The translations under genes were made by a program, and so were the position numbers. DNA of 64,000 nucleotides from Candidatus Magasanikiibacteriota bacterium (GTDB taxonomy: Bacteria > Patescibacteriota > Patescibacteriia > Magasanikbacterales > GWA2-37-8). Numbering within the stretch: position 1 is the stretch's first letter; every line of letters begins with the position of its first letter. The stretch lies in contig JBAYIZ010000001.1 in the NCBI GenBank assembly GCA_041665405.1, positions 26,618 through 90,617 on the forward strand, written 5' to 3'. The notes beneath the pieces were generated by a model. It saw nothing but the letters and a program-made list of their open reading frames with translations, was not told where the DNA came from and searched no databases. This document shows positions 6,784-39,768 of this stretch, one piece after another.

Positions 6784-8328
6784 ATGCCCGAGCAAAAAAC
6801 AACTGTACTAGTAATCCTTGATGGTTGGGGTATTGGACAAACGGAAAATACTCTTGATCCAATCGTGCCAGAACATGCGCCGAATTATTTTGATTTTTTA
6901 AAAAAGTATCCCAACACCCAATTGGAGGCCAGTGCAGAAGCGGTAGGATTGTTCAAAAAACAGGAAGGAAATAGTGAAGCTGGTCATATCAATTTGGGAG
7001 CGGGGAGAGTAGTGAAGCAAGACGCTTTGTATGTTAGTGATGCGATAGCCGACGGCACTTTTTTCAAGAATAATGCTTTTTATCAAGCGTTGCATCATGT
7101 CAAAAAATATAATACAGCCGTGCATTTGATGGGGTTGTTGTCCAATCATAATAGCGCGCATTCATGCCCAGAGCATTTGTACGCTTTGTTGGAATTAATG
7201 AAAAAAGAAAAGATAAAAAAAGTTTTTTTGCATTTGTTTACAGACGGTCGTGACTCTGCTCCACATGATGCTGTGAATCATCTCAAAAAATTGAGAGACC
7301 ATATGAGTGGTGACGAAAAAATTGCTACTGTTATGGGGAGGTTGTATGCGATGGATAGAAATAAAAATTGGCATAGGACAAAAATGGCATACGAGGCAAT
7401 GACATTAGGGAAAGGCAAACTTGTGAGTACTGCCGAAGAAGCTCTTTTGAAAGCATATGATTGTGGGGAGTCGGATGAGTTTATTTCGCCGACCATAATT
7501 GTTGATCAAAATAAACCGATAGCCACAATAAAAAATAATGATGCAATCTTTTTTTTCAATCTTCGCAGTGATCGGGCGCGTGAAATAACAAAAGCATTCG
7601 TGCAACCAGATTTTGAAAAAGTAAATCCTGGGGCTTTCAAGCGAACACGCATACCAAAAAATACTAGGTTTGTCGCGTTGACTGATTTTGGTCCGGATTT
7701 ACCAGGTGTGTTGACCGCGTATCCCAGTCGCGATGTAAATAATAGTTTAGTACAGTTTTTGTGTCCCAAAAAACAACTATATGTGGCAGAATCAGAAAAA
7801 TTTGCTCACGTCACTTATTTCTTCAATGGTGGTTATGCTCAACATTTTTGTGATGAAGAATGGGTTAAAATACCAACTCCATCCGCAGAAAATTATGAAA
7901 ACAAACCAGAGATGAACGCCAAAGGAGTGGGTGATAAAGTAGTAGAGGCAATAGAATCTGGCAAATACGAATTTATTGTTTGTAATTTTGCCAACGCCGA
8001 TATGGTTGGCCATACTGGCAATTTCAAAGCTGCTCAAGAGGCAGTACAAGCCATTGATGAACAGTTGGGTAGAATAGTTCAGGCTTTGACAGCTGTTAAA
8101 GGGCAAGGTATAATCACAGCCGATCACGGCAATATTGAAGAGATGATAAATATGCGAACTGGCGGTATTGATACAGAACATTCATTGAACCCAGTACCCT
8201 GTATTATAATAGGTTCAGGCGCCAAGCAGATCAAAAAATCTGGCAAACTCGCTGATGTGGCCCCAACTTTGATCAAAATGATGGGGCTAAAAAAACCAAA
8301 AGAAATGACTGGTAAATCATTGATATAG
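6784..8328 (+). CDS. gpmI: 2,3-bisphosphoglycerate-independent phosphoglycerate mutase (iPGM), copy 1
   Basis: iPGM motifs ILDGWG and catalytic Ser region GNSEAGHINLGAGR. Confidence 0.9.
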   Translation: MPEQKTTVLVILDGWGIGQTENTLDPIVPEHAPNYFDFLKKYPNTQLEASAEAVGLFKKQEGNSEAGHINLGAGRVVKQDALYVSDAIADGTFFKNNAFYQALHHVKKYNTAVHLMGLLSNHNSAHSCPEHLYALLELMKKEKIKKVFLHLFTDGRDSAPHDAVNHLKKLRDHMSGDEKIATVMGRLYAMDRNKNWHRTKMAYEAMTLGKGKLVSTAEEALLKAYDCGESDEFISPTIIVDQNKPIATIKNNDAIFFFNLRSDRAREITKAFVQPDFEKVNPGAFKRTRIPKNTRFVALTDFGPDLPGVLTAYPSRDVNNSLVQFLCPKKQLYVAESEKFAHVTYFFNGGYAQHFCDEEWVKIPTPSAENYENKPEMNAKGVGDKVVEAIESGKYEFIVCNFANADMVGHTGNFKAAQEAVQAIDEQLGRIVQALTAVKGQGIITADHGNIEEMINMRTGGIDTEHSLNPVPCIIIGSGAKQIKKSGKLADVAPTLIKMMGLKKPKEMTGKSLI

Positions 8329-8329
8329 T

Positions 8330-9907
8330 ATGGCTTATAAATTAGTAACTCTTGTAATTTTTGACGGCTTGGGTGTGGCGCCTTCATCGGATGGCAACGC
8401 AGTTACACATGCCAAGATGACCAATTTTCAAAATTACATAAAAAATTATCCAGTGATGACTGTATATGCTTCAGGAAATGAGGTTGGTTTGTCTTTTGGA
8501 GAAATGGGTAATTCTGAAGTTGGACATTTGAATATTGGTGCGGGCCGAGTTTATTACCAGTCTTGCCCGCGTATTAATAATGAAATTGGCAATGGTGAAT
8601 TTTTCAAGAATCCAGCTTTTTTGGCGGCGGTAGAAAATGTCAAAAAAAATAAAACCAATCTTCATCTAGTGGGTTTGCTCGGGACAGGAAATGTGCACGC
8701 TAGCGATAGCCATTTGTATGCGCTCTTGGATTTTTGTGCACAAAATAAAATAGGTGATAGAGTATTTGTTCATGGAGTTTTGGACGGGCGAGATGCTCTA
8801 TATAATTCTGGAAAAACTTTTGTGACAGATTTGTTGGAAAAAATGAGAGTCACTAAAACTGGACAGTTGGCTTCATTGTCTGGACGTTTTTATGCGTTGG
8901 ACAGAGATAATCGTTGGGATCGTTGTGAAAAAGCTTACCAGGCCATGGCTTTGGGCAAGGCTGAGCGTAGTGGTGATGATCCGCTGAAAGTGATTGACGA
9001 TTCATATGCAGTAAAAAATTATGATGAGGAATTTACTCCAACTGTGATTACCAAAAAAGGTAAACCGGTTGTAACTATAAAAGAAAATGATTCAGTAATA
9101 TTTTTTAATTTCCGTCCTGATAGAGCACGTGAATTGACCAAAGCTTTTGTATTACCTGGGTTTAATAAATTTGAAAGAGAATATATAAAGAATTTGTTTT
9201 TTGTAACGATGACAGAATTTGAAAAAGATCTACCAGTGATGGTGGCTTATCCGCCGATTGTCGTACATAATTCATTGGCCGAAACAGTAAGTAAAGCCGG
9301 TAAAAAACAATTTCATGTGGCCGAGACAGAAAAATATGCGCATATTACTTTCTTTTTAAATGGTACAGTAGAAGATCCGTTTATTGGAGAAGATCGAATG
9401 ATCGTACCGTCACCAAAAGTATCTTCATATGCGGAAGCTCCAGAGATGTCTGCCGCTTCAGTTGCCAAAGAAGCGGTCAAAGCAATCGACAGTGGGAAGT
9501 ATGATTTGATCGCTCTAAATTTTGCCAATGCTGATATGGTCGGACATACAGGTGATTTGGCCGCCACAATAAAAGGTTGTGAAGCCGCTGATAAAGCATT
9601 TGGAGAAGTTGTTCATCATACTTTGGCTCAAGGTGGAGTGGTAGTGGTGACAGCTGATCATGGGAATGCAGAAGAAATTGTAAATTTACAAACAGGAGAA
9701 ATAGATAAAGAACACTCTACCAATCCTGTGCCACTATTAGTTATTAGTAAAGAATTTGAGGGGCAAGCCGGTCCAGCTGGTGAACCACCAGAAGGCGATT
9801 TGAGTCTGATGCATCCAGTGGGGGTACTCGCCGATGTAGCGCCGACAGTTCTGAGTCTTATGGGTGTGCAAATACCGTCGGAGATGACTGGGACGGCATT
9901 GATATAA
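8330..9907 (+). CDS. gpmI: iPGM paralog, copy 2 (tandem duplicate)
   Basis: Same family motifs (IFDGLG, GNSEVGHLNIGAGR); clearly diverged from copy 1. Confidence 0.85.
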   Translation: MAYKLVTLVIFDGLGVAPSSDGNAVTHAKMTNFQNYIKNYPVMTVYASGNEVGLSFGEMGNSEVGHLNIGAGRVYYQSCPRINNEIGNGEFFKNPAFLAAVENVKKNKTNLHLVGLLGTGNVHASDSHLYALLDFCAQNKIGDRVFVHGVLDGRDALYNSGKTFVTDLLEKMRVTKTGQLASLSGRFYALDRDNRWDRCEKAYQAMALGKAERSGDDPLKVIDDSYAVKNYDEEFTPTVITKKGKPVVTIKENDSVIFFNFRPDRARELTKAFVLPGFNKFEREYIKNLFFVTMTEFEKDLPVMVAYPPIVVHNSLAETVSKAGKKQFHVAETEKYAHITFFLNGTVEDPFIGEDRMIVPSPKVSSYAEAPEMSAASVAKEAVKAIDSGKYDLIALNFANADMVGHTGDLAATIKGCEAADKAFGEVVHHTLAQGGVVVVTADHGNAEEIVNLQTGEIDKEHSTNPVPLLVISKEFEGQAGPAGEPPEGDLSLMHPVGVLADVAPTVLSLMGVQIPSEMTGTALI

Positions 9908-11207: not shown

Positions 11208-13853
11208 ATGAAGGAATTATCTAAGGCCTACGAACCGCAAAAATACGAGGATGAAATCTATAAAAAGTGGATGGATAGTGGGTTTTTTAATCCTGATACT
11301 TGTGTTGAAAAAGGTGTCTGTAAGGATGATTCACCGACATTTAGTATGGTTTTGCCTCCACCAAATGTCACCGGCACTCTTCATATTGGTCATGCCTCGA
11401 TGTTGGCGATAGAGGATTTAGTGACTAGATACAAGAGGATGCAAGGTTTTAAGACCTTGTGGTTGCCTGGGACTGATCATGCGGCGATTGCCACTCAGGC
11501 CAAAGTGGAGAAGCTTTTGATTGAAAAAGGTATAAAGGAACCGAAAAAAGAATTGGGCAGAGAAAAGTTTTTGGCGGAAGTAGAAAAATTTGCTCAGGAA
11601 TCGCATGACACTATTGTGAACCAATGTAAGAAAATGGGGTCAAGTTTGGATTGGAGTCGAGAGGCATTTACTTTGGATGTGGAAAGAAATTTGGCAGTGC
11701 GTACAGTTTTTAAAAAAATGTATGATGATGGTTTGATTTATCGCGGGTTACGATTGGTAAATTGGTGTCCACATTGCAAATCTACCTTGGCAGATGATGA
11801 AGTAGAACACAAAGATCAGATTGCTAAACTTTATACTTTCAAATATTCCAAAGATTTCCCAATTGCGATCGCTACTACTAGACCGGAAACAAAATTAGGC
11901 GACACTGCAGTGGCGGTCAATTCAAACGATAAACGTTATGCCAAATATATTGGCCAAGAATTTGTAATTAAAAATTTTGCTGGTGGCGCGGATTTGAAAA
12001 TTAAGATTATTGGTGAGGAAAGTGTGGATATGAAGTTTGGTACTGGTGCAGTGGGTGTGACTCCAGCGCATAGTGCGATTGATTATGAAATGGCGCAAAA
12101 AAATAATTTGCCGATTGTAAAAATTATCAATGAAGAAGGACAGATGACCAAAGAAGCAGGAGAAAAATATTTGGGTAAAGCAGTAAAGGTAGCACGAGCT
12201 GAAGTGGTGGAATGGTTGAAAGAAAATAATCTTTTGGAAAAAGAGGAAGAAGTGCCAAATAGTTTATCTATTTGTTATCGCTGTGGTTATGCGATAGAAC
12301 CGTTGCCTTCCAAACAGTGGTTTATTGGGGTAAATAAGGAATTTGTTCTGCCTCATTCCAATATTGATGGAATACAATCCGGCGAAAAAGTGACACTCAA
12401 AAAATTGATGCAGAAAGTGGTGACCAATAAACAAATTGAAATTATCCCAGACAGGTTTGAAAAAACTTATTTTCACTGGATAGATAATTTGCGTGATTGG
12501 TGTATATCTCGTCAACTTTGGTATGGACATAGAATTCCGGTGTGGTACAAGGGTGAAGAAGTTTATTCTGGAATTGATGCGCCTACAAGTGAAGGTTGGT
12601 CGCAGGATCCAGATACATTGGACACTTGGTTTAGCGCTGGATTGTGGAGTTTTTCTACTTTGGGTTGGCCAAATCAAACCAAAGATTTAAAAGATTTTCA
12701 TCCCACAACATTGCTTGAAACTGGTTATGATATTATATTTTTCTGGGTGGCGCGTATGATTCTCATGACCACTTATACATTGGGTACTATTCCATTTGAA
12801 ACAGTTTATTTACACGGTCTAGTGCGAGATGAAAAGGGTAGAAAGATGAGTAAGAGTTTAGGTAATGTGATTAATCCGCTAGACACCATTTCCAAATTTG
12901 GCGCTGATGCGACTAGATTGTCTTTGTTGTTGGGTAATACTCCTGGTAATGATTTGAAATTGTCTGAAGAAAAAGTAGAAGGGTTTAGAAATTTTACCAA
13001 TAAGTTGTGGAATATTTCACGGTTTATGTTGCTCAATATTCCGGAGCCAAAGATTGATGTAAAATTGCCTGAATTAAAAACTTTGTCTGATAAATGGATT
13101 ATTGGTTGTTTGAGTAAAGTAGTCATGGATGCTTCAACCATGATTGAAAATTATCAACTATCAGCCGCCGGAGAAAAACTTCGTGAATTTACCTGGGGCG
13201 ATTTAGCGGATTGGTATTTGGAAATTGCAAAAGTGGAGGGTGGTAAAGAAGAAATTTTAAATTATATTCTAAACACGGTTTTAAAACTATGGCATCCGTT
13301 CATGCCATTTGTGACTGAACAGATTTGGAGTGAAATTTATGGTGGACAAAGAATGTTAATAGTAGAGAAGTGGCCCAAACAGGAAAGTATCACAGAGAAC
13401 ACTATTGAGTTTGAAACAATTAGAAATATCGTTACTGGTATTCGTACTTTGCGTGCCGACAACAAAATTGAACCAATCAAAAAATTAGACGCCACTATTA
13501 GTGCGGGCGCAAAATTAAATTTGATCAAAGAAAATTCTGAAGTTATCAAAGCTTTGGCTCGTTTGGGAAATTTGGATATTGTGGAATCTGCCAAAAAATC
13601 TTCTACTGCCGCTGGGTTTGTGGAGGGTGGAGTTGAAGTGTTTATTGAGCTTGCTGGGGCAATTGATCTGGACAAAGAAAAAGAACGCCTGCAAAAAGAA
13701 TTTGAAACATTAACAAAATATATCAACGGAATAGAGAATAAATTGGCGAATGAAGAATTTGTGAGAAATGCTCCACCGGCCGTGATAGAAAAAGAAAGAC
13801 AAAAATTAGCAGAAGCACAAGTGAAATTAGATAAAATTGAAGCCCAACTATAA
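11208..13853 (+). CDS. valS: Valyl-tRNA synthetase
   Basis: Class I HIGH (TLHIGHA) and KMSKS motifs; C-terminal coiled coil; size 881 aa. Confidence 0.95.
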   Translation: MKELSKAYEPQKYEDEIYKKWMDSGFFNPDTCVEKGVCKDDSPTFSMVLPPPNVTGTLHIGHASMLAIEDLVTRYKRMQGFKTLWLPGTDHAAIATQAKVEKLLIEKGIKEPKKELGREKFLAEVEKFAQESHDTIVNQCKKMGSSLDWSREAFTLDVERNLAVRTVFKKMYDDGLIYRGLRLVNWCPHCKSTLADDEVEHKDQIAKLYTFKYSKDFPIAIATTRPETKLGDTAVAVNSNDKRYAKYIGQEFVIKNFAGGADLKIKIIGEESVDMKFGTGAVGVTPAHSAIDYEMAQKNNLPIVKIINEEGQMTKEAGEKYLGKAVKVARAEVVEWLKENNLLEKEEEVPNSLSICYRCGYAIEPLPSKQWFIGVNKEFVLPHSNIDGIQSGEKVTLKKLMQKVVTNKQIEIIPDRFEKTYFHWIDNLRDWCISRQLWYGHRIPVWYKGEEVYSGIDAPTSEGWSQDPDTLDTWFSAGLWSFSTLGWPNQTKDLKDFHPTTLLETGYDIIFFWVARMILMTTYTLGTIPFETVYLHGLVRDEKGRKMSKSLGNVINPLDTISKFGADATRLSLLLGNTPGNDLKLSEEKVEGFRNFTNKLWNISRFMLLNIPEPKIDVKLPELKTLSDKWIIGCLSKVVMDASTMIENYQLSAAGEKLREFTWGDLADWYLEIAKVEGGKEEILNYILNTVLKLWHPFMPFVTEQIWSEIYGGQRMLIVEKWPKQESITENTIEFETIRNIVTGIRTLRADNKIEPIKKLDATISAGAKLNLIKENSEVIKALARLGNLDIVESAKKSSTAAGFVEGGVEVFIELAGAIDLDKEKERLQKEFETLTKYINGIENKLANEEFVRNAPPAVIEKERQKLAEAQVKLDKIEAQL

Positions 13854-13863
13854 TATTTTATTT

Positions 13864-14985
13864 ATGCCAGGAGATCAACTAGGAAGATCAAATGAATTTG
13901 GTGGTGATTTTGGAAAGATAGGCACTATTGAAACACCAGAAAAAAAATTAGCTGTGGAATTGCTTGATAGCGTGCGGTCTTTTGCTAATAATATTTATCC
14001 GCGTTTAAGAGCAGTCTTAAATTTAAGGAAAATAAATAGAGGCGTTCTGGATGTAAAGGCAAAACAAGAATTGTCTGCTTTGTTAAAAGAGATTCCGACG
14101 TTGGTATGTTTGCAATTAAATAATTTTACCTTTTTAAAGAATAAAAATTTAACCGGCACTACTCAAGTTGAGCATGATTTAAACAATTTTTCTGCTGGAT
14201 TATTTGGCGTTGTTGAATTAATAAAAGAAAATGAGGAAGCGGGTTTGAAGGCAGTAGCGGCAAATGATTTGGGTGGTGTTTTGAACGATTTGCAATTAGT
14301 TTGTGAATACTCTCCGGGTTTTATTATTACTTTGGAGGATATATTGTTACATGAACAGAATTTAGAATCGGATAAAGAAAATGTAGGACAGCGGGCGTTG
14401 GATCTGGATTTTTTATTGGCTGGTATTCGTCAATTGGTAATGAGTGGGGCAGTGGACGGTCGGGTAAATAAATTATTTAGTAGTTTAAAATTTTTAAGCT
14501 CGGAAGGTATTTTAAAAGAAACCGAAGAGATTGTTACTCAGCCGGCAGTAATTGGAAATTTTTTATTTAATGTCATGCGCAATGCTAGTAAGGAAAAAAC
14601 AGACACCAAGCATGTAAATTTTTATATTTTACGCGAAGGTGACGAGTTGGTAATTCGTATTGTAGATGCTGGTATTGGGATGACCAAAGAACAACTTGAC
14701 CCCAATAGTAAGAAATTTATTTTTGGAACAGGTAAAGAAAGTTCAGGCACAGGTAGTACTGGAATCGGGTTGGCTGATGCTGATAAGCGATTAAGCAAAT
14801 ATGCAAATAGTCAGGTGCGCGTATGGAGTCGCCCTAGAGAAAATACAGAAGCGGACTATAATACTTTTCCATCAGATAATAATGATGAGATCCCAGTGGT
14901 AGTAATGGAAAGTGGCGAAGACGACTCAATCACTGGATTAGTTTCAACAGTTTTTGAACTTAGATTACCAATTATTCAAAAATAA
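13864..14985 (+). CDS. GHKL/HATPase_c-domain protein (histidine-kinase-like ATPase) with uncharacterised N-terminal half
   Basis: C-terminal N-box/D-box/G-box-like motifs (NFLFNVMRNA.., VDAGIGM, GTGSTGIGL); no canonical H-box seen; alternative start at 13837 overlaps valS. Confidence 0.5.
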   Translation: MPGDQLGRSNEFGGDFGKIGTIETPEKKLAVELLDSVRSFANNIYPRLRAVLNLRKINRGVLDVKAKQELSALLKEIPTLVCLQLNNFTFLKNKNLTGTTQVEHDLNNFSAGLFGVVELIKENEEAGLKAVAANDLGGVLNDLQLVCEYSPGFIITLEDILLHEQNLESDKENVGQRALDLDFLLAGIRQLVMSGAVDGRVNKLFSSLKFLSSEGILKETEEIVTQPAVIGNFLFNVMRNASKEKTDTKHVNFYILREGDELVIRIVDAGIGMTKEQLDPNSKKFIFGTGKESSGTGSTGIGLADADKRLSKYANSQVRVWSRPRENTEADYNTFPSDNNDEIPVVVMESGEDDSITGLVSTVFELRLPIIQK

Positions 14986-14998
14986 ATATTTTAATTTT

Positions 14999-16198
14999 AT
15001 GAAATTATCAACTGACCAACAGAAAATTGTAGAATTATTAAATAGGGGTGTAGAAAATATTTACCCTAAAAAAGAATTCTTGGAAGCGCGTCTCAAAGAG
15101 GAGAAACAGCTCGCTCTCTATACCGGTTATGATCCAACTGCGCCGACTTTGCATATCGGACATGCTATTACGATGATGAAATTGCGTCAATTTCAGGATT
15201 TGGGACACAAGGTGATAATGTTGATTGGCGATTTTACCGGCATGATCGGAGATCCGACTGATAAAACTTCCGCGCGCGTTCAGTTGACGCATGATCAGGT
15301 GATGGAAAACTGCAAAAATTATAAAGAACAAGCCAGCGCGATTTTGAACTTCAAAGGAGACAACCCGGTTGAAATAAAATATAACGGCGAATGGTTGGGG
15401 AAATTAAATTTGGCAGGAGTGTTGGATTTGACTTCACATTTTACAGTAGATAGATTATTGGAGCGTGACATGTTTGATAAGAGAAAAAAAGAAGGGAAAC
15501 CAATATTTTTGCATGAATTTTTATATCCAGTCATGCAGGCCTATGATAGTGTGGCGATGGATGTAGACGGAGAAGTGGGAGGCAATGACCAGACATACAA
15601 CATGTTGGCTGGTCGTGATTTGATGAAAGATTTAAAAAATAAAGAAAAGTTTGTTTTGACTTCAAAATTGTTGGTAGATAATAGTGGTAAAAAAATGGGT
15701 AAAAGTGAAGGCAATATGATTGCCTTGTCTGACACTCCTGAGGATATGTTTGGCAAAGTGATGAGCTGGACAGATGGTATGATTGTGAATGGTTTTATTT
15801 TGTGTACCAGATTACCGATGGACGAAATCAATGGAATAGAAAAAGATTTAAAATCTGGTACAAATCCACGCGATATCAAATTGAGATTGGCGAAAGAAAT
15901 TGTGGTGACTTTTGTGGGTGAAAAAGAGGCCGTTGTGGCCCAAGAATATTTTGTGCATACATTTAGTAAAAAAGAACAACCAGATGAAATGCCAGAAATA
16001 AAACCAAGTGCATATGACATTTCTACTTTATTGGTAGAAGCGGGTGTGTGCAAAAGCAAAGGGGAAGTGCGTCGAGTGATAGATCAGGGTGGAGTAAAAA
16101 TAAATGAAGAAAAAGTGGGTGAAAATGATTATACTCATGTTGTAAAACCAAATGATATCGTGCAAAAAGGCAGTCGTTGGTTTGTAAAAGTGAAATAA
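14999..16198 (+). CDS. tyrS: Tyrosyl-tRNA synthetase with C-terminal S4 domain
   Basis: HIGH (TLHIGHA) and KMSKS-like (KMGKS) motifs. Confidence 0.9.
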   Translation: MKLSTDQQKIVELLNRGVENIYPKKEFLEARLKEEKQLALYTGYDPTAPTLHIGHAITMMKLRQFQDLGHKVIMLIGDFTGMIGDPTDKTSARVQLTHDQVMENCKNYKEQASAILNFKGDNPVEIKYNGEWLGKLNLAGVLDLTSHFTVDRLLERDMFDKRKKEGKPIFLHEFLYPVMQAYDSVAMDVDGEVGGNDQTYNMLAGRDLMKDLKNKEKFVLTSKLLVDNSGKKMGKSEGNMIALSDTPEDMFGKVMSWTDGMIVNGFILCTRLPMDEINGIEKDLKSGTNPRDIKLRLAKEIVVTFVGEKEAVVAQEYFVHTFSKKEQPDEMPEIKPSAYDISTLLVEAGVCKSKGEVRRVIDQGGVKINEEKVGENDYTHVVKPNDIVQKGSRWFVKVK

Positions 16199-16206
16199 TA
16201 AATTTT

Positions 16207-17379
16207 ATGTTAAGACCTAGATTAGGAGCGGAGATGCCAACCCCATTTTCGGAAGCAGGCAATAGATATGAATCAGCCAAAGCTGAAGTGAAAGCTGGGC
16301 TTCTGGACATTTATCAGGAGTTCGTTGATTTGGTGTCCGGATGGGAATTGGATTTTAATGATCCAAATTGGCATAAAGCTTTTTTGGATATTGAAGATGG
16401 TATTAAAAGTACGGCGGCTAGTTTTGGTATTATAGATATTGAACGTCCCGTGGTTACTGAAATAAACAAATTTGAAATGGGTGGTAAATTGTCTAATGAA
16501 GAACGGATCGATCTGTTATTTAAATTACAGGCAATTAGACAAAAATTAGAATCTTTTGAATTAGTACACCGGAAAAAAATGGAAAAAGTGGGGATGATTA
16601 ATTTGTTGAGTAATAAAAAAGCTGAATTATTAGAAAGGAAAGAAAATTTGATTGGTAAAATGGCGAAAGGTTTAAGAGGAGAAGCAAAAAAAATAAACGG
16701 AGAACCGCAACTGGTAGTAGAAAAACCAGATTTAAGCGAAAAAGATTTGGCTAATTTTGAACCAGATGAAATAGCCCGAAGTTCAAAAGATATTACACCA
16801 AAAACCAAAATATATATTGGCCCACTATTTGTTGGAATTTTTAGTGAAAAGTATAAACATTTAGATTATATTTACACTTCATTTCCAGAAAATAGGGTAC
16901 ATAGAGAGACAGTAATGACAGGTGGCAAAACCAAACAACAGTTATTTGAAGAAATGCAAAAACAAAAAATCCAAGTTTATGACGAAGCGAAATTTTTGAT
17001 GAGAAGTGAAGATTTTTCTACCACCTCAGAAACTGAACAAGCAGATTTTGTCCGTCTCACCGTAAGAGATTTATTTAATGATTCAAATAGTCACACTACT
17101 GATGAGATTTACGAAAGAAAAAGACAACTTGGTTTAGAATTGTGTCAAAGTCAAGATGGACCAAATTATCGTTTACATTATACCAATCAACCACAAGGTG
17201 AGTGGTTACGAATGGGTATGAAACAAATCACCGACGCGGATGGCTATCCGGGCGTGTTCTATCTGGATTGTGATGGTGGCGGTGGCCTGAAGCTCCGCGT
17301 CCATTGGATGTCTCCGGGGGATCAGTGGCGTTCCGGTCATCAGTTCGTCTTTCGTCTCAGCAAGTATGAAACTAAATAA
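16207..17379 (+). CDS. Hypothetical protein with a central coiled coil and a GC-rich C-terminal segment
   Basis: Long ORF with no recognisable motif; last ~50 codons are visibly GC-rich. Confidence 0.4.
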   Translation: MLRPRLGAEMPTPFSEAGNRYESAKAEVKAGLLDIYQEFVDLVSGWELDFNDPNWHKAFLDIEDGIKSTAASFGIIDIERPVVTEINKFEMGGKLSNEERIDLLFKLQAIRQKLESFELVHRKKMEKVGMINLLSNKKAELLERKENLIGKMAKGLRGEAKKINGEPQLVVEKPDLSEKDLANFEPDEIARSSKDITPKTKIYIGPLFVGIFSEKYKHLDYIYTSFPENRVHRETVMTGGKTKQQLFEEMQKQKIQVYDEAKFLMRSEDFSTTSETEQADFVRLTVRDLFNDSNSHTTDEIYERKRQLGLELCQSQDGPNYRLHYTNQPQGEWLRMGMKQITDADGYPGVFYLDCDGGGGLKLRVHWMSPGDQWRSGHQFVFRLSKYETK

Positions 17380-19163: not shown

Positions 19164-20258
19164 ATGATATACGAAAAAATTATTCGTCCGATTTTATTTA
19201 AAACAGATCCTGAATGGATTCATAATTTTGTTATATCTGGCTTATCAATAGTGAGTAGTTTGCCATTAGTATCGAATGTGATAGCTAAATATTTTAATGT
19301 TAACGACTCGTCTCTGATTACATCTGTAGGAAAAGTAAAGTTGAACAATCCTGTTGGTTTGGCGGCTGGTTTTGATAAAAATGTTACTGCTCCACTGGCG
19401 TATAATATGCTCGGTTTTGGTTACGCAGAATTGGGGTCGGTAACTTATAGTGGACAACCGGGTAATCCAAAGCCTCGTTTATGGCGTTTACCAAAAGACC
19501 AGTCGTTGATTGTTTATTATGGTCTATATAATATTGGAGCAAAAAATATTTTAGAAAAAATGAAAAAACTTAAAGCTCGTAAAATTCCTTTGGGTATTAG
19601 CATCGCGCCGACTACGGGTCTAATTTTGTCGGAAATGACCGCTGACTATTTACGAAGTTTTGAAATTTTGTATCCATATGCTGACTTTATCACTCTCAAT
19701 GTAAGTTGTCCCAATGTGGCTGGGTGTGATTTGTTTGCCCAAATTTCTTTTATAAGAGAATTGGTTAGTGCTATAAATGATTTTAAGAAATCAAAAAATA
19801 TTGATCTGGATATTTTTGTTAAAATTGGGCCAGATATGGACAACGAGCAATATGATGAAATTTTGGATATTTGTGTAGCTAATAATGTGACGGCAATTAT
19901 TGCTACTAATTTAATAAAAAAACGTGAAAGTATAAAATCTTTGAGTGAACCAAAAATATTATCTCATCCAGGTGGAATATCTGGAAGGCTTTTAAGAGAA
20001 CGAAGTAATGAGGTGATCAAACATCTGTATGCTCGTGCCAATGGTCGGTTGAAGATCATCGGTTTAGGAGGAGTTTTTTCTGCGCAAGATGCTTATGATA
20101 AGATAAAATGCGGAGCTAGTGCGATTCAGCTAATCACTGGGTTTATTTACAATGGACCGTGGGCGATGAAAAATATTAATAAGGGGTTGGTAGAATTGCT
20201 TAAAAAAGACGGATATAAAAATATTAGTGAAGCGGTGGGAAGAAGTGTTGTAAAGTAG
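19164..20258 (+). CDS. pyrD: Dihydroorotate dehydrogenase (family 2-like)
   Basis: DHODH signatures (GLAAGFDKN, C-terminal GGV..GASAIQL TIM-barrel motifs). Confidence 0.85.
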   Translation: MIYEKIIRPILFKTDPEWIHNFVISGLSIVSSLPLVSNVIAKYFNVNDSSLITSVGKVKLNNPVGLAAGFDKNVTAPLAYNMLGFGYAELGSVTYSGQPGNPKPRLWRLPKDQSLIVYYGLYNIGAKNILEKMKKLKARKIPLGISIAPTTGLILSEMTADYLRSFEILYPYADFITLNVSCPNVAGCDLFAQISFIRELVSAINDFKKSKNIDLDIFVKIGPDMDNEQYDEILDICVANNVTAIIATNLIKKRESIKSLSEPKILSHPGGISGRLLRERSNEVIKHLYARANGRLKIIGLGGVFSAQDAYDKIKCGASAIQLITGFIYNGPWAMKNINKGLVELLKKDGYKNISEAVGRSVVK

Positions 20259-20260
20259 CT

Positions 20261-21319
20261 ATGATTAATGACATGAATTTTAAAAAAGATATTTATCAGC
20301 TACCAACTCCAGATAAAGTGTATGATTGGCAGGGGATACGATGGGAAATTTTTTTAGCTAAAAATTTCTCTAGCCAATGGGTAAATGAAACGACTCATAA
20401 TTTGGTATTAAAGTGTCGGCAGTCTTTTGAGCGTTATGGTGAAATTAGCCTAGAGGACGATTATGACAACAAATCATTAGTTTTATTAGCTAGAGTTCAT
20501 TTTGAAAATGAAAATGGACAGCAGGAAGAATTTTTCTCATTACGTTTGATACCAGCACAGGGTGAGCCTTTTTTAACCGAAGATTTACAGGTCATATTGC
20601 ATGGTGGGGGGAATTTGTATGAATTAATAAAAGATAAATTACATTTTGGACATTCTGAATCTCATAAATATATATTTACAATTTCTCGTTTTTGTGGTCT
20701 TTCTTTAATTCCCAGTAATCAAAATCATTTAAAACATACCACCCTCAGTTTAGTTATTTTGTGGCTATTCGCTTTAGAGGGTGTTCCAAAACCTCACAAA
20801 GATATTGCTATAACGGCGATGTTTAATCGCCATATTTTTAGTAAGGTAAGTCGTTTGAAAATAAATAACAAAGAGTTTGTTTTATCTCTGCCAGAGATCC
20901 ACGAGACCCTATCTTTGTCGATAGAAAATTTTGGTAATTTTTTTCCTGGTCCAGTAGCCTTTCATTATCCAGCTTATTTTTTCAATTTACCTGAATTGAT
21001 ATCTTGGTTTAGAAAAATATTTGATGATAAAAAAATTAATCTAGATACTATCAAACATTGTTGGGGAACGGAGATTGATTGGGTTCAAATAGAAAAAGAA
21101 TTATCACATGATAAAATGGCAGTAATAAAAAAGATGCACGGCTTGGGCAAAATGTTGAATGGTTGCACACCTTTGCCTGGGTGTAAACTAAATAGTGTTG
21201 AGTTGAGAAACGATTTAGAAGAAGCAGTGAAAAGTTCATTAGTTTTAAAATTAATCAAATTAGAAGATTTGGAAAAAATATTGAAAAAATTTCTAGATAA
21301 TATATCTTTTATCGTTTAA
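20261..21319 (+). CDS. Hypothetical protein
   Basis: No recognisable motif; immediately upstream of the E1-like gene. Confidence 0.4.
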   Translation: MINDMNFKKDIYQLPTPDKVYDWQGIRWEIFLAKNFSSQWVNETTHNLVLKCRQSFERYGEISLEDDYDNKSLVLLARVHFENENGQQEEFFSLRLIPAQGEPFLTEDLQVILHGGGNLYELIKDKLHFGHSESHKYIFTISRFCGLSLIPSNQNHLKHTTLSLVILWLFALEGVPKPHKDIAITAMFNRHIFSKVSRLKINNKEFVLSLPEIHETLSLSIENFGNFFPGPVAFHYPAYFFNLPELISWFRKIFDDKKINLDTIKHCWGTEIDWVQIEKELSHDKMAVIKKMHGLGKMLNGCTPLPGCKLNSVELRNDLEEAVKSSLVLKLIKLEDLEKILKKFLDNISFIV

Positions 21320-21323
21320 TTGT

Positions 21324-22580
21324 ATGATTGTAAATCGTTTTATTCGGAAACCATATGTATTTGAGGGGATACAAGCGATTAAAAATAATTTGATTAAAAA
21401 AGGTGAAGACGGGGCGATTGAAATACTTTATCATGATAATTGGATTTCAATTCCACCGGCTAATCAGTTTGATCTGACTGCGGCCACTATTTTTGGTTTG
21501 AATGAGCGCCTAACTCTAGCCGCTCTCTCACCAGTAACCGATAGTTCTGGGTTAACTTTGCGTGAACAGTTCAATGACGAATGGATGAAATATACACAAG
21601 CGCTCGAATCAGAAGATTTATTTTCCTATGGTTATTTTGCGTATTATGAGGAAAAAAATCATCTCGTTCATTATTGTGATCCTTATTGGCATAAAGTGGT
21701 AGCGGTGGCCAGTAATTCTACTTTATTATCTGATCCAGAACTGAAATTAAAATGGAAAGAAGTTAGAGAAATTTTTGCTAATACAGTTGTTGGAGTAGCT
21801 GGTTGTAGTGTGGGTAGCAATATTATTCACAATGTTATGATGGACATGCGTCCAGATAAGATAAAAATAGCCGATAAAGTACCATATAAAATGGAAAATA
21901 TTAATCGTGTCCGTTTGGGGTATTGGGATATGGTAAAGAGTAATGCAGATAAAGCTGGCCTAATGGATGTGGGATTAAAAAATAAAGCGCATGTAGTGGC
22001 TGATCAAATTTATGGCATGGACCCCTTTACTGATGTTTATGTTTATGATGAAGGACTGAGCAATGAAAATGTAGCTAGTTTTTTTGATGGTGGCGGTACG
22101 GAGCCAAAACTGGATATAATAGTAGAAGAAATAGATGATCCACAGAGTAAATTGTTCATTCGACAAGAAGCCAAAAAACGTCACATACCTTTGATTATGG
22201 CTAGCGATATGGGTTCGATGGTACAAATTGAAGTCTCACGTTATGATTTGGATGAAAATCTTCCTTTGACTTATGGAGTTGATGATGGTGCTTTTATTGA
22301 CGCAGTAGAAAATATTTCCAAAGCAGGTTCGGATAGAAAGTTATTTTTTCAGTTTGTAGATACTTTGATTGGTCGCGATTACTATGAAGATGAATTGCAG
22401 AGAATCATTGAAGAAAAATGTGAGATTCCGACATCTACCATTGTCCCTCAATTGGGTTCTACAGCAGCCTTGTCTGGAGCACTAGTGGCTGAGTTGATAG
22501 CTAGAATTCGTCTAGGTTATAAATATCCTCCTCGTTTTTCTTTTAATAAGAAAACTTTGGAAGTGAAAATTTATCAATAG
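21324..22580 (+). CDS. E1-like / ThiF-MoeB-superfamily adenylyltransferase-fold protein with ~140-aa N-terminal extension
   Basis: Rossmann GxGxxG-like VVGVAGCSVGSNI...D..KIADKV...NINR, then IPLIMASDMGS and GSTAALSGALVAELIA, in E1 order. Confidence 0.55.
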   Translation: MIVNRFIRKPYVFEGIQAIKNNLIKKGEDGAIEILYHDNWISIPPANQFDLTAATIFGLNERLTLAALSPVTDSSGLTLREQFNDEWMKYTQALESEDLFSYGYFAYYEEKNHLVHYCDPYWHKVVAVASNSTLLSDPELKLKWKEVREIFANTVVGVAGCSVGSNIIHNVMMDMRPDKIKIADKVPYKMENINRVRLGYWDMVKSNADKAGLMDVGLKNKAHVVADQIYGMDPFTDVYVYDEGLSNENVASFFDGGGTEPKLDIIVEEIDDPQSKLFIRQEAKKRHIPLIMASDMGSMVQIEVSRYDLDENLPLTYGVDDGAFIDAVENISKAGSDRKLFFQFVDTLIGRDYYEDELQRIIEEKCEIPTSTIVPQLGSTAALSGALVAELIARIRLGYKYPPRFSFNKKTLEVKIYQ

Positions 22581-23686
22581 TTGATAATAACTTTGGAGAG
22601 CGGCCACCTAGGAGAGTGTGGCCGTTTTTTGTCTTCGTCCCTTTTTAGGTAACCCATTCGAAATAGGGTCATGATTCGGCTAGTTGTTCCCAAAAATGAC
22701 ATGGAAAATAATTTATTAATTAAAGTCACTTCGGCGATACCAGCATGTACAGCGCAATAGATACCTTCGGCCGTAAGTTGCAAAAAAATTTCTTCCATCA
22801 CCTTGCCGGCTTCGAGCCAACTTTCAATAGTATCTTCTTGAGAAGTGAGAAAACAAACAGTGGGTGATTTTTCAATACCGATTTTTCCGCCCATAGAAAA
22901 TTTCAATCCATCCTCTGGCCTTAAAGCGGTTTCTCCTTTTAATCCTGAATGTAATCTTTGGGCTTCATCATCTGCTAAACCAAATCCTACGCCTGGCATG
23001 CCGACAAAACTTTCTGTATCATTGGGTAATAGCCACTCTCCCAGTTCATGACTGAATTTTTTGGAGTTTATAACAAAGTTGTCTGCTTGACCCTGAAATT
23101 CTCCAATAGTAAGACGACGCCAACGATCTGACACTAAATGTATTTCTATTTTTTCATTATTAATACTTTCTATTTTTTCTAAAATTTCGATTGGAATTGG
23201 AGTTTGTTCATTGTATTCAGCTCTGGTTACCTGACGATTGAAAATAGCGAGATAATTTTTTTCTAAACTATCATCGGGAGTATCAGAAATGAATTTGATT
23301 TTTGCTAGTGCAATCAACTCAGGATCGGGGATTCCCGGTTTAAAATCTTCTTTTGATGAATTTAATATTTTAATTTCTGTTTTATATCCAAAATAACGGC
23401 TGGACACTTCAATATTCTTTAACGCACATCCGGAGCTGATAACCGTTTGGCGCCCATTGATGTCTGAGGCTGGTAAAATAAAATGTATATTTATAAACAT
23501 CATTATTTCCATCTCTTCCAGATTGATTTCAAATCGCCAAGGTTGGGTGTTGTGGGTGTTGGGGGCCAAATGTCCCACCAGACAGAAGTGTTGTAGCTGT
23601 TCTTTTGGTGAAAGTCCTTTGAATTGATCTTTTTTCCATGGCGTGCTTTTCCAAATATTGTAGTTTTCTCCAGAAAAATTATCCAT
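22574..23686 (-). CDS. Nitroreductase-superfamily (FMN-dependent, SagB/NADH-oxidase-like) protein, long two-lobed form
   Basis: N-terminal nitroreductase signature HLAPNTHNTQPWRF; 370 aa, longer than a simple nitroreductase. Confidence 0.55.
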   Translation of the reverse strand: MDNFSGENYNIWKSTPWKKDQFKGLSPKEQLQHFCLVGHLAPNTHNTQPWRFEINLEEMEIMMFINIHFILPASDINGRQTVISSGCALKNIEVSSRYFGYKTEIKILNSSKEDFKPGIPDPELIALAKIKFISDTPDDSLEKNYLAIFNRQVTRAEYNEQTPIPIEILEKIESINNEKIEIHLVSDRWRRLTIGEFQGQADNFVINSKKFSHELGEWLLPNDTESFVGMPGVGFGLADDEAQRLHSGLKGETALRPEDGLKFSMGGKIGIEKSPTVCFLTSQEDTIESWLEAGKVMEEIFLQLTAEGIYCAVHAGIAEVTLINKLFSMSFLGTTSRIMTLFRMGYLKRDEDKKRPHSPRWPLSKVIINY

Positions 23687-23762
23687 ATCTTATAGTTTTT
23701 TATCTTAAAATAGTGTATAATATAATTATTAAATTATAACAGCTGTGTAATCTTTAAGCAAT

Positions 23763-25406
23763 ATGTTTAGTTTTGATACTCAAGATTTTCAACTCCTCTT
23801 GAGTTTTATTACATTTTTCGCCTCTACAGCCTTGGGGGTTTTGACCTATACCAGAGATCGTAAAAGCTGGACCAATCGTTTGTTTGGTTTGTTGGCGTTT
23901 TTGATTGATGCTTATATAGTGATAAATTTTTTGTCTTTGCATCCGCCAATTTCTACACCAGAGAGTCAGCTGTTCTGGATTAGATTGGTAATGTTTGTTT
24001 GTTCTTTTATTGGGCCTACTTTGCTGTTGTTAGTTATGTGTTTTCCTGGAAGTGTTTTTGGTGTTAAGAAAAAATTTTTTATTCCGATATTGTTGTTGAT
24101 GTTGGTATCAGCGGCTGCGTCTTTGTTGCCTTTGGTTTTTAAATCAATTGAATATCCTAACGGAAGTCCCGTACCAGTACCTGGACCAGGGATAGTTGTT
24201 TTTCTGTTAGACTTTGTTGGTTTGTTTATTGTCAGCTTTGGAGTGCTTATTTATAAATACCGTAAAGCGGTTGATGAAGAAAAAACCAAATTATTATTAT
24301 TTTTATTGGGTGTATTATTTACCTTTACCTTGATGGGTGTACTTACGGTGATTGCGGTGGTAGTTTTCAAATCATCTGCGGGAGTATTTTTGGGGCCAAT
24401 TTCGTTTGTGATCTTGTCTTCGTTTGTAGCTTTTGCCATTATCAAGCACGGCTTGTTTAATGTTAAGGTTATTACTACTAAAGTATTAATTGGCATTTTG
24501 TGGATAGTGTTCTTTTCAAGAATTTTTCTTTATGAATCCACCCAACAACTAATTATTAATTTGGCTTTATTTTTAATAATATTTGTTTTTGGTTTTGGTT
24601 TAGCTCGTAGTGTCGAACGTGAAGTAAAACAAAAAGACGAGGCGTCTGCTTTAGCCGTTTCTTTGGAGCAGGCAAACTTACGCTTGCAGGAGCTGGACAA
24701 ACAAAAAACTGAATTTCTTTCTATAGCTTCCCACCAATTACGCACTCCACTTTCTATATTAAAAGGGTATATTGAATTAATTCAAGATGGTGGATATGGA
24801 AAAATAACTAAACAGACAAATCAAATTCTGAAAAACATGGATGAGAGTAATGAACACCTGATTAAATTGGTGGATGACTTTTTGGATATTTCTCGCATTG
24901 AACAGGGGCGAACAAAATATGATTTTAAAAATTTCAATTTATCTCATACTATAGATGGTGTATTATTTGAATTATGTAAGCGCGCGGACGATAAAGGATT
25001 AAAATGTATATGGCATGATGGCACAGTATTTGAAATAGTTGGAGATGAAGAAAAAATTCGCCATGTTATTTTCAATTTTGTGGATAATGCTATTAAATAT
25101 TCTGAGGATGGAAATGTGAAAATTGATTTGAAAAACAATAATGGGGGTGTTGATGTGACTGTTAGAGATAGTGGATTTGGTTTTGGTAAGGTTGATGGAG
25201 CCAATTTTTTTCAGAAATTTTATCGTGGGGAAAACGTCAAAAATACGAATGTTACTGGTACCGGTTTGGGGTTGTATGTTTGTCGTAAATTCATTGAAGC
25301 GCATGGTGGCAAAGTGTGGGCGCATAGCGCTGGGCTTGGAAAAGGTAGTGAATTTGGCTTTTGGTTGCCGCTAAAGCCCCCTGCTACGGTTTCTGGTAAA
25401 GTTTAG
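23763..25406 (+). CDS. Sensor histidine kinase with ~7-TM N-terminal domain
   Basis: H-box SIASHQLRTPLS, HATPase_c N/D/G boxes (FNFVDNAIKY, RDSGFGF, GTGLGLYV); multiple N-terminal hydrophobic helices. Confidence 0.85.
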   Translation: MFSFDTQDFQLLLSFITFFASTALGVLTYTRDRKSWTNRLFGLLAFLIDAYIVINFLSLHPPISTPESQLFWIRLVMFVCSFIGPTLLLLVMCFPGSVFGVKKKFFIPILLLMLVSAAASLLPLVFKSIEYPNGSPVPVPGPGIVVFLLDFVGLFIVSFGVLIYKYRKAVDEEKTKLLLFLLGVLFTFTLMGVLTVIAVVVFKSSAGVFLGPISFVILSSFVAFAIIKHGLFNVKVITTKVLIGILWIVFFSRIFLYESTQQLIINLALFLIIFVFGFGLARSVEREVKQKDEASALAVSLEQANLRLQELDKQKTEFLSIASHQLRTPLSILKGYIELIQDGGYGKITKQTNQILKNMDESNEHLIKLVDDFLDISRIEQGRTKYDFKNFNLSHTIDGVLFELCKRADDKGLKCIWHDGTVFEIVGDEEKIRHVIFNFVDNAIKYSEDGNVKIDLKNNNGGVDVTVRDSGFGFGKVDGANFFQKFYRGENVKNTNVTGTGLGLYVCRKFIEAHGGKVWAHSAGLGKGSEFGFWLPLKPPATVSGKV

Positions 25407-25478: not shown

Positions 25479-25952
25479 ATGATGTTCCAAAAATCCACTC
25501 CAAAAAATATCGTTGAAGAAGAACCCCAATTTGAAACTCCAGCTGTAACTGAACGAGTGGATGAAGTAGAGACAATAGTAGGCCCTTCAGTAAATGTGGA
25601 GGGTGATTTTGCTTCTGAAGGAAATATTATTGTCAAAGGAACAGTATCAGGCAGTGTGCATACGAGTCGATTTTTATATGTAGAAATAGGGGCAAAGATT
25701 ATGGCCAATGTAAGGGCTGGAAATGCAAAAATTTCTGGTGAAGTGAAAGGAAATTTAAAAATTAAAGAAACTCTAGAACTCACTTCGACCGCTAAGGTGT
25801 TGGGAGATATCGAAGCAAAAGTTTTGTCAGTAGAACCAGGAGCATTGCTTTTCGGCAAGGTGTCCATGCCAGGTATAGAAGGTGCTGATGTGAAAGGTTC
25901 GAAAACACGTATTTCACGTCGTAGTGAAGATGTGGTTGAAGTTGGAGAATAG
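25479..25952 (+). CDS. Bactofilin-family cytoskeletal protein
   Basis: Repetitive beta-helical bactofilin (DUF583) pattern (VKGTVSGSVH.., ISGEVKGNLK.., VLGDIEAKV). Confidence 0.7.
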   Translation: MMFQKSTPKNIVEEEPQFETPAVTERVDEVETIVGPSVNVEGDFASEGNIIVKGTVSGSVHTSRFLYVEIGAKIMANVRAGNAKISGEVKGNLKIKETLELTSTAKVLGDIEAKVLSVEPGALLFGKVSMPGIEGADVKGSKTRISRRSEDVVEVGE

Positions 25953-25990
25953 ATAAAATTGCGTAGGCAATTTTAATACGACAGAAATGT

Positions 25991-26755
25991 ATGTACGTTT
26001 ATCTTTATGACAATTTTTTGCGGCAAAAAAAGTATGATTCCTTAATCAAAGCGGTGGAGGTGCGTTTGACTGATTATGGAATTGCTGGAAAAATTTTGCG
26101 TTTAAACAATTTTATTGATCCAAAACAGATTATTGATGATGAAATAAAGCGTGGTGCCAAAACGATTGTGATAGTGGGAAATGACGCGACTTTCGGATAT
26201 GTGTTGTCACGAGCGGCTACTTGTAATTGTACGTTCGGTTTTTTGCCAGTTGGCGCGGATAATACGATTTCTGAGGTATTAGGAATTCCGGTTGGTGTTG
26301 AGGCGTGTGACGTTTTGTCCAAAAGGCGCAAGGAAAGTTTGGATGTGGGTTGGATGAATAATCGATATTTCGTTTCTCAATTGCATGTGTTGCCAGCAAA
26401 GCTGAAAGTCGTATATGATGAGAGATTTGTAGTGACTGCCAATGAAAAAATGGAAGTGGTAGTTTGCAACTTGCAACCTTATTATTGGAAAAAAGATAAA
26501 AAAGATCAATCAGATCAGGTGGTGCATCCGCAAGACGGCAAGTTGGAGGCGTTTTTAAGACCATTGACAAAGCAGGGGTGGTGGGGATATAAATATGAGG
26601 ACCCAAGTGTATTTCCATTCGAGGAAATGGAGATAGTGTCTGATTCACCATTCACCGTTGAAGCTGACGGAAAAGTTTCCAAAGAGATAAAAGTGAAAAT
26701 CAAATTGGCACACGGGAAGATAGACATGGTGGTCGGTAGGAATAGGCAGTTTTAA
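25991..26755 (+). CDS. Diacylglycerol-kinase catalytic-domain lipid kinase (YegS/BmrU-like)
   Basis: DAGK_cat motifs (IVIVGNDATFGYV, GFLPVGADNT). Confidence 0.65.
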   Translation: MYVYLYDNFLRQKKYDSLIKAVEVRLTDYGIAGKILRLNNFIDPKQIIDDEIKRGAKTIVIVGNDATFGYVLSRAATCNCTFGFLPVGADNTISEVLGIPVGVEACDVLSKRRKESLDVGWMNNRYFVSQLHVLPAKLKVVYDERFVVTANEKMEVVVCNLQPYYWKKDKKDQSDQVVHPQDGKLEAFLRPLTKQGWWGYKYEDPSVFPFEEMEIVSDSPFTVEADGKVSKEIKVKIKLAHGKIDMVVGRNRQF

Positions 26756-36391: not shown

Positions 36392-36418
36392 ACACGACCA
36401 ATTTGGTCGTGTTTTTTT
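36392..36418. terminator. Bidirectional intrinsic terminator between rplL and the convergent gene
   Basis: ACACGACC-aattt-GGTCGTGT hairpin flanked by A-run and T-run. Confidence 0.6.
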
Positions 36419-39764: not shown

Positions 39765-39768
39765 TCAC

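Follow-up and report, generated by a model that had tools for sequence, protein, structure and literature searches.

Which pathway might an E1-like adenylating enzyme and a long nitroreductase-type flavoprotein serve when their genes lie tail to tail in a genome of the Patescibacteria? The question is raised by a 64,000-nucleotide stretch of Candidatus Magasanikiibacteriota DNA (assembly GCA_041665405.1, contig JBAYIZ010000001.1, positions 26,618 to 90,617), called the window here. A preliminary description of it, made from the letters alone, had singled out three open reading frames (ORFs), namely an unassigned one (here ORF-X), an E1/ThiF-like gene and a nitroreductase gene, and had read the latter two as machinery for a peptide that is made on ribosomes and modified after translation (RiPP) of the thiazole/oxazole-modified microcin (TOMM) type. 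All three ORFs are present as described, and a sensor histidine kinase gene completes the block (positions are those of the window):

20261..21319, + strand: ORF-X, 352 aa; candidate N-acyltransferase
21324..22580, + strand: E1/ThiF-like ATP-dependent enzyme (E1), 418 aa; candidate oxazolone-forming cyclase
22574..23686, - strand: single-chain tandem nitroreductase-superfamily flavoprotein of the FDO/Acg type (FDO), 370 aa; candidate FMN-dependent C-alpha/C-beta desaturase
23687..23762, no strand: divergent intergenic region between FDO and kinase, 76 bp, read from sequence; presumed promoter region
23763..25406, + strand: sensor histidine kinase, 547 aa; Pfam HisKA_7TM, HisKA and HATPase_c

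We propose that this block is a Patescibacteria variant, laid out as separate genes, of the acyl-oxazolone (Oxz/Tyz/Trz-type) pathway; we infer this function, and put the probability of the proposal slightly above even, at about 0.55. It is directly supported by E1 and FDO each being homologous to one half of the mycobacterial enzyme TrzS, by intact adenylation and FMN-type motifs, by strict synteny and by fusions of ORF-X to E1. The activity of ORF-X, the substrates, the product and the link to the kinase are what we infer beyond this.

E1 and FDO match the two halves of a known fusion enzyme

Among 18,950 NCBIfam models, the best match of E1 was NF005901, “Rv1355c family protein” (E 3.2e-36, 124.8 bits), with E1 residues 82-400 mapping to profile positions 44-325 of 722, while the ThiF (33.8 bits) and TcdA (15.9 bits) models scored lower. 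FDO matches the C-terminal half of the same model (positions 366-645 of 722; E 1.2e-14, 53.5 bits). Since E1 thus matches the N-terminal half and FDO the C-terminal half of the family of Rv1355c (TrzS), the pair corresponds to a split ThiF-nitroreductase fusion. Together with the N-acyltransferase TrzA (Rv1356c), TrzS produces N-acyl tryptazolones (PMC12856293), and the substrates of the fusion enzyme are N-acyl amino acids, which it converts to N-acyl oxazolones, and not ribosomal peptides (PMC12856293, PMC10404671). Its cyclisation step is ATP-dependent and is abolished by the mutation D217A, and its desaturation step is O2-dependent and is impaired by R540A (PMC12856293).

A tblastn search with E1 against 72,556 plasmids returned 15 records, all from Actinomycetota and at 25-30% identity, and every annotated match carried the name “Rv1355c family protein” or “ThiF family adenylyltransferase”. 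The protein from a Rhodococcus plasmid is a bona fide Rv1355c-family member (837 bits on the family model); FDO aligns to its C-terminal half (E 1e-4), and BLASTP placed E1 on TrzS-type ThiF domains with E 4e-24 (Rhodococcus, E1 residues 95-402) and 5e-29. The catalytic residues are also retained. All five canonical E1 adenylation motifs are invariant among 60 orthologues (G160-x-S162-V163-G164, D184, N192/N194/R195, K221 and D271), and D271, which aligns with the Asp of the “EECD” motif of TrzS-type proteins, is the candidate counterpart of TrzS D217. FDO has an invariant motif of its own, H45-N46-(T47)-Q48-P49-W50.

The placement of the 418-aa protein in the adenylating E1/ThiF family, already made in the preliminary description, is borne out by Pfam (ThiF, 32.1 bits, barely over the cut-off) and by its AlphaFold2 (AF2) model (pLDDT 91, pTM 0.91), which has the E1 fold; the two motifs quoted there, GVAGCSVGSN and GSTAALSGALVAELIA, both lie in this protein. 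Foldseek found 240 matches of the model in the PDB at E<=1e-3, and the 50 best listed of these are all E1, ThiF, MoeB, MccB, PaaA or AclA enzymes. The top structural match is AclA of Tenacibaculum discolor (PDB 9egb), a ThiF-like protein of 250 aa whose structure together with its substrate dates from 2025. The N-terminal extension of about 140 aa that had been noticed before turned out to be composite. Residues 1 to about 95 (window 21324-21608), a small beta-rich unit with two helices, are specific to this lineage and carry the invariant motif QFDLT-ATIFGLNERLT; residues ~95-155, by contrast, are common to TrzS-type ThiF domains (a TrzS-like hairpin, with the Rossmann core running through ~95-418).

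Several E1 homologues are named “molybdopterin/thiamine biosynthesis adenylyltransferase” by JGI, which would make the protein a MoeB/ThiF proper that activates a sulfur carrier for molybdopterin or thiamine synthesis. However, the ThiF/MoeB models give E1 only 17-34 bits against cut-offs of 152-275, its sequence has no CxxC zinc motif, and the block is devoid of ThiS, MoaD or any small carrier gene, so that we consider this explanation very improbable; a MoeB/ThiF proper beside a generic nitroreductase, the result named beforehand as speaking against the RiPP proposal, was likewise not what the searches returned. Rv1355c itself was formerly named MoeY. For TyzB and TrzS, the historical MoeW/MoeY annotations have been overturned by experiment (PMC10404671, PMC12856293).

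FDO, in turn, is confirmed as a long protein of the FMN nitroreductase superfamily by Pfam PF00881 (26.2 bits) and by a profile of 20 orthologues that spans the whole of MsAcg (PDB 2YMV; E 1.2e-15). An Acg structure is also the reference that was used for the FDO domain of TrzS (PMC12856293). The full length of FDO matches NF047509, “Acg family FMN-binding oxidoreductase”, with E 1.7e-49, and its 169 bits lie below the cut-off of 199, so the architecture is related and the curated subfamily is not entered. Identity to TrzS-type FDO domains is about 20%.

The gene block is conserved and adjoins a histidine kinase gene

Loci from GTDB species genomes (23), contigs obtained by exact-protein look-ups and the window itself yielded, after removal of duplicates, 25 distinct Patescibacteria loci, with GC contents from 33 to 61%. 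The order ORF-X -> E1 <- FDO is present in all 25, with ORF-X directly 5' of E1 wherever upstream sequence is available; E1 and FDO are adjacent and convergent throughout, and in most loci their 3' ends abut or overlap, as they do by 7 bp in the window. Given this synteny and more than 120 E1 homologues at 49-81% identity, the genes are genuine rather than chance ORFs; a public record also holds a 348-aa product that equals ORF-X except for the choice of start codon. The earlier suggestion that E1 and the convergent nitroreductase form a functionally coupled pair is thereby strengthened, all the more since they correspond to halves of one known fusion, and the upstream 352-aa ORF can be added to the pair on account of its position and of the ORF-X-E1 fusions described below.

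A fourth conserved gene follows: in 22 of the 22 loci with a long enough contig, a histidine kinase with an N-terminal seven-transmembrane (7TM) sensor domain, HisKA and HATPase_c lies next to the FDO gene. In one locus (L028), it is co-directional with FDO and overlaps it. No additional gene belongs to the conserved block across the 25 loci, and the outer flanks vary (aminoacyl-tRNA synthetases, PNPase or DnaK/DnaJ). Genes for a bactofilin and a DAGK_cat-type lipid kinase come after the histidine kinase in 13 of the 25 loci, including the window (25479-26755); the DAGK-like protein is the most conserved of the neighbourhood, with up to 93% identity.

In four loci, a divergent gene for a single-domain response regulator (~120-130 aa) lies 5' of ORF-X, and regulator and kinase bracket the biosynthetic genes as a complete two-component system:

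L003, 4602-4994: response regulator, divergent from ORF-X
L024, 5406-5795: response regulator, divergent from ORF-X
L035, 5556-5921: response regulator, divergent from ORF-X
L036, 291-662: response regulator, divergent from ORF-X

The kinase of L035, the locus of the most distant listed ORF-X homologue, contains a GAF domain in addition. In another locus (L017), a regulator stands between two kinases. No upstream response regulator was found in the window.

Might the flavoprotein and the kinase form a unit of their own? An Acg-like flavoprotein under the control of the kinase could be a stress or dormancy protein, comparable to the FDO-B proteins of the mycobacterial DosR regulon, with ORF-X and E1 doing something else. 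Such a separation would agree with the divergent promoter region or operon that FDO and kinase share, with the top score of FDO on the Acg/Rv3131 model and with FDO-B enzymes being unlinked to oxazolones. But it leaves unexplained why the 3' ends of E1 and FDO abut or overlap in most of the 25 loci and why both domains are fused in the Rv1355c family, with each window protein matching its own half, and we therefore judge it improbable.

Across the loci, identity to the window proteins is 49-77% for E1, 38-66% for FDO and 31-77% for the kinase, compared with 35-80% for ArgRS; the three proteins are thus about as conserved as the aminoacyl-tRNA synthetases of the same loci. ORF-X diverges faster (22-45%). 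Conservation of this core-gene kind would also be compatible with a housekeeping role, in which E1 and FDO would act on a macromolecule and modify the carboxylate of a tRNA nucleoside, as TcdA does, or of a protein or peptide C-terminus, with ORF-X and the N-domain of E1 as substrate adaptors. TcdA is indeed the sole PDB sequence matched by the E1 family profile (E 1.7e-5, over the central ~110 residues only), synthetase genes stand beside the block in about half of the loci, and the strongly conserved N-domain is absent from TrzS-type proteins. On the other hand, the TcdA model scores 15.9 bits on E1 against 124.8 for Rv1355c, TcdA acts without a nitroreductase, the outer flanks change from synthetases to PNPase or DnaJ, and the conserved genes of the block include none for a small carrier protein. 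Weighing both sides, we regard a macromolecular substrate as rather unlikely.

ORF-X is a candidate for the N-acyltransferase

If the pair acts as TrzS does, a third activity should acylate the amino acid, and ORF-X is the candidate. We place it in the N-acyltransferase slot because it is fused to E1 in three sequences: two independent metagenome-assembled genomes (MAGs) encode ORF-X-E1 as a single ORF (L023 and L028, 800 and 814 aa), and so does one library protein (P0248, 795 aa). These fusions are, by analogy, a parallel to a GNAT-ThiF fusion on a Kitasatospora plasmid (see below).

The protein itself gave no Pfam, NCBIfam or PDB sequence match as a single sequence, nor a PDB match by family profile at E<=10. 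A Csy4 match in the single-sequence PDB search (E 0.13) was taken as noise. The family is small: an exhaustive profile search of 1.84 billion representatives found 241 clusters only, nearly all matching over the full length (314-460 aa), and a second, word-indexed homologue search with the ORF-X alignment added one sequence and no others. The AF2 model (pLDDT 87.1, pTM 0.86) consists of a GNAT-like N-terminal domain (~residues 19-207) and a helical C-terminal domain (~213-347). The elements of residues 19-207 run beta-hairpin, alpha1, alpha2, beta2, beta3, beta4, alpha3, beta5, alpha4, beta6, beta7, which by our own reading of the model would be the GNAT order. The best Foldseek match in the PDB is the acyl-homoserine-lactone synthase LasI (1ro5; E 1.1e-3, prob 0.96, 204 columns), followed by further GNAT acetyltransferases.

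Twelve positions are invariant or nearly so (R53, Y59, G60, D66, D69, E90, R95, S142, R143, C145, P237 and Y239). Those of the GNAT-like part (R53, Y59-G60, D66, D69, E90, R95 and S142-R143-x-C145) lie on alpha1, alpha2, beta3 and beta4, elements that in LuxI-type synthases carry a conserved Arg, Asp-x-x-Asp, Arg and Glu-x-Ser-Arg. In hhalign, the ORF-X profile was compared with TrzA-like proteins of Rhodococcus and Nocardia, the Kitasatospora GNAT domain and the Acetyltransf_5-like N-terminus of the family member P0184, and none of the alignments was significant (P 0.013-0.9); the best one (P 0.013, not significant) pairs the RYG and EW..R motifs. [quoted passage not shown] Ddl and NUDIX genes adjoin it, and L034 shows no E1 gene up to the contig end.

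A RiPP pathway is a most unlikely account of the locus

The TOMM/azoline assignment, with its SagB-type dehydrogenase and ocin-ThiF-like partner, was not sustained. It starts from the adjacency of an E1-like and a nitroreductase-superfamily gene, and MccB and PaaA, which would fit a peptide-modifying enzyme, do appear among the Foldseek matches of E1; these two are no closer than generic E1s, however, with rmsd values of 11-16 Å when the N-terminal parts are included. None of the three proteins matched the SagB-type (TIGR03605), ocin-ThiF (TIGR03603, TIGR03882), cyclodehydratase or MccB models of NCBIfam at E<=0.1. The preliminary description had itself recognised neither a YcaO cyclodehydratase nor a precursor peptide, and we agree on both counts: PF02624 is missing from the 32 of 35 window ORFs of at least 250 aa that were scanned with Pfam, and no YcaO gene is conserved across the 25 loci; ORFs of at least 20 aa all lie inside or across the large genes, and none is rich in Cys, Ser or Thr. 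A precursor gene would not even fit, since the spacings are only 2 bp (pyrD/ORF-X), 4 bp (ORF-X/E1), -7 bp (E1/FDO) and 76 bp (FDO/kinase). With the pair mapping onto the halves of Rv1355c/TrzS instead, TOMM machinery or an MccB/PaaA-like peptide-modifying enzyme is a most implausible explanation. The likeness that had been noticed is understandable because oxazolone chemistry is analogous to azole formation, both being an ATP-dependent cyclodehydration followed by flavin-dependent dehydrogenation; by analogy with TrzS, E1 would be the catalyst here and not a docking scaffold as in TOMM systems. The defence models of PADLOC yielded marginal superfamily matches of E1 and the kinase only.

Comparison with published acyl-oxazolone pathways

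By analogy, the same three activities unite the published pathways: OxzAB of Pseudoalteromonas (bioRxiv 10.1101/2020.06.11.147165), TyzACB, which follows the same logic with separate genes (PMC10404671), TrzAS (PMC12856293) and the clusters of NasY, ThiF and nitroreductase that are proposed to make N-acyl dehydrotyrosine in Planctomycetota, Massilia and Thalassotalea (PMC12479983).

TrzAS (Rv1356c/Rv1355c) of Mycobacterium tuberculosis and its relatives shares with the window the matching ThiF and FDO halves, the retained adenylation Asp, a small gene without Pfam match upstream in the acyltransferase position, and a link to signal transduction (c-di-GMP genes in M. tuberculosis, GGDEF on the Rhodococcus plasmid, a histidine kinase in the window). 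It differs in that TrzS is fused whereas the window genes are split and convergent, in that the window E1 has an extra conserved N-domain of ~95 aa, in that ORF-X is 352 aa long, includes an extra helical domain and shows no detectable relation in sequence to TrzA-like proteins, and in that the host phylum of the window is Patescibacteria. Likewise, TyzACB (Rv2336, Rv2337c and Rv2338c; N-acyl tyrazolone) is, by description, a system of three separate genes, namely an acyltransferase recognisable by fold only and, each as a protein of its own, a ThiF cyclase and a single-chain FDO of ~370 aa; the FDO has a lid, and its gene adjoins that of the ThiF protein (PMC10404671). Its gene order and orientation are different, the Tyz cluster has no kinase, and Tyz is narrowly distributed, whereas the window block behaves as a core locus of its lineage. 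In OxzAB of Pseudoalteromonas rubra, an N-acyltransferase gene lies directly 5' of the ThiF and nitroreductase activities, and ATP-dependent oxazolone formation is the chemistry expected for the window as well; OxzB, however, is a fusion from the Proteobacteria, and OxzA is a recognisable N-acyltransferase, unlike ORF-X, which is matchless in the sequence libraries searched. A 2025 review names OxzB as the one ThiF-like enzyme with a known small-molecule substrate (PMC12596934).

Two further proteins resemble single components. TcdA (CsdL, the tRNA t6A dehydratase) is an E1-like enzyme whose ATP-dependent dehydration also gives an oxazolone ring, but on a tRNA substrate and without need of a flavoprotein, and its model NF011696 gives E1 15.9 bits against a cut-off of 304. 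The FDO-B proteins Acg (Rv2032) and Rv3131 share the full-length, single-chain, pseudo-dimeric nitroreductase fold (MsAcg, 2YMV), although no ThiF gene accompanies those of the Acg type, whereas the FDO of this block always has one beside it.

Related plasmid loci show other arrangements. On the Rhodococcus plasmid (NZ_CP096567.1), a 252-aa hypothetical protein divergently adjoins the Rv1355c-family gene, and its Nocardia homologue takes the TrzA position, directly 5' of a ThiF-FDO gene. In Rhodococcus, the TrzA-like gene is abutted by one with a GGDEF domain (L029, 1910-3645), echoing the c-di-GMP neighbours of trzAS (PMC12856293). A Kitasatospora plasmid (NZ_CP108248.1; L030, 3047-5931) encodes a protein of 616 aa in which an N-terminal domain, weakly GNAT-like, is fused to a TrzS-type ThiF domain (414 bits on NF005901 without an FDO half), followed by a gene for ketoacyl-ACP synthase III; this locus may represent a different oxazolone-type cluster architecture.

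Proposed mechanism and points against it

In the acyl-oxazolone pathway we propose, ORF-X, as a divergent enzyme of the GNAT/LuxI-FeeM-like kind, would transfer an acyl group from an activated donor to the amino nitrogen of a probably aromatic amino acid. E1 would then adenylate the carboxylate, and attack by the amide oxygen would close a 5(4H)-oxazolone ring with release of AMP. FDO would use FMN to desaturate the C-alpha/C-beta bond, and the product would be a conjugated oxazolone or, once hydrolysed, an N-acyl dehydroamino acid. The 7TM histidine kinase could control the genes or sense a product that partitions into the membrane.

Several points weigh against this reading. The 124.8 bits of E1 fall short of the equivalog cut-off of NF005901 (476 bits), and as the Kitasatospora ThiF domain reaches 414 bits even without an FDO half, the window E1 is a distant relative and not an equivalog; its identity to TrzS-type ThiF domains is only 27-30%. 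The Acg/Rv3131 model gives FDO 169 bits and the TrzS model only 53.5; these scores are ambiguous as to the oxazolone-linked subgroup FDO-A, and Acg-type FDO-B enzymes have no link to oxazolones. For ORF-X, no sequence relation to TrzA-like proteins, Acetyltransf_5 or LuxI is detectable by hhalign or Pfam, a one-by-one Pfam search of 63 diverse family members at E<=10 returned scattered noise only, and the structural match to LasI (E 1.1e-3) is borderline because its TM-scores are low (0.23/0.37). Conservation at the level of aminoacyl-tRNA synthetases, together with vertical inheritance, is unusual for a secondary-metabolite cluster. Finally, the synthesis of fatty acids and CoA is usually missing from Patescibacteria, and their life is often anoxic, which calls both the acyl donor and the oxidant into question.

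With regard to the kinase, it is tempting to extend the acyl-oxazolone reading to a hard-wired signalling circuit, in which the LuxI-like/ThiF/FDO trio would make an oxazolone-type acyl-amino-acid signal that the adjacent 7TM kinase senses, with a regulator joining in some lineages; we see this as possible, although on the unlikely side. The coupling echoes, by analogy, the c-di-GMP genes that adjoin trzAS in M. tuberculosis, which the authors of the Trz study noted when proposing a signalling role (PMC12856293).

Significance

Since the class of system is known (2021-2025), the finding is not categorically new. The pathways to oxazolones or N-acyl dehydroamino acids reported to date come from Pseudomonadota, Actinomycetota and Planctomycetota (PMC12479983), and our literature searches found no paper that ties Patescibacteria (the candidate phyla radiation) to oxazolones or to a ThiF-nitroreductase pair; the supplements of two papers in the Journal of Biological Chemistry are silent on this too. 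New here are the phylum, an ORF-X family without Pfam match in the acyltransferase slot, the conserved extra N-domain of the candidate cyclase and the invariable coupling to a 7TM kinase. If the acyl-oxazolone reading is true, the pathway would reach a fourth phylum, one that is deeply divergent and genome-reduced, the synthetase-like conservation and the constant kinase would speak for a role of importance to the cell and not for an accessory one, ORF-X would gain a testable function, and the “molybdopterin/thiamine adenylyltransferase” annotations in MAGs would be corrected. The physiological role of oxazolones is an acknowledged open question (PMC12856293), and the kinase would offer a concrete handle on the signalling hypothesis. 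If the signalling circuit were also true, Patescibacteria would possess an autoinducer-like system acting between cells or between symbiont and host, and oxazolones would have their first defined physiological role.

Neighbouring genes in the window

A scan for promoters and terminators gave nothing beyond shuffled expectation, including in the 76-bp gap between FDO and kinase. Upstream, the block is preceded by pyrD:

19164-20258: pyrD (quinone-type dihydroorotate dehydrogenase), stopping 2 bp before ORF-X

The same gene directly precedes ORF-X in the closest relatives (L006, L007 and L009) and is absent from that place in more distant loci. A 705-aa library protein (P0166) joins PyrD to ORF-X, as either a true fusion or a read-through gene call.

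The window has a GC content of ~37% and carries housekeeping genes, among them those for ValRS, TyrRS, ArgRS, PyrD, glycolytic enzymes and MreB. Large ORFs without Pfam match at E<=1e-4 lie at 36417-38762 (- strand, 781 aa), 39718-41256 (+ strand, 512 aa) and 45806-48388 (+ strand, 860 aa). Between ValRS and TyrRS, an ORF that overlaps both (13837-14985) encodes a 382-aa protein with HATPase_c and no HisKA. A 400-aa ORF without Pfam or NCBIfam match (16177-17379) separates TyrRS from ArgRS, unlike in L001, where the two synthetase genes are directly side by side. Two consecutive, full-length genes for cofactor-independent phosphoglycerate mutase (iPGM_N plus Metalloenzyme domains; 6784-8328 and 8330-9907) constitute a tandem duplication in a small genome.

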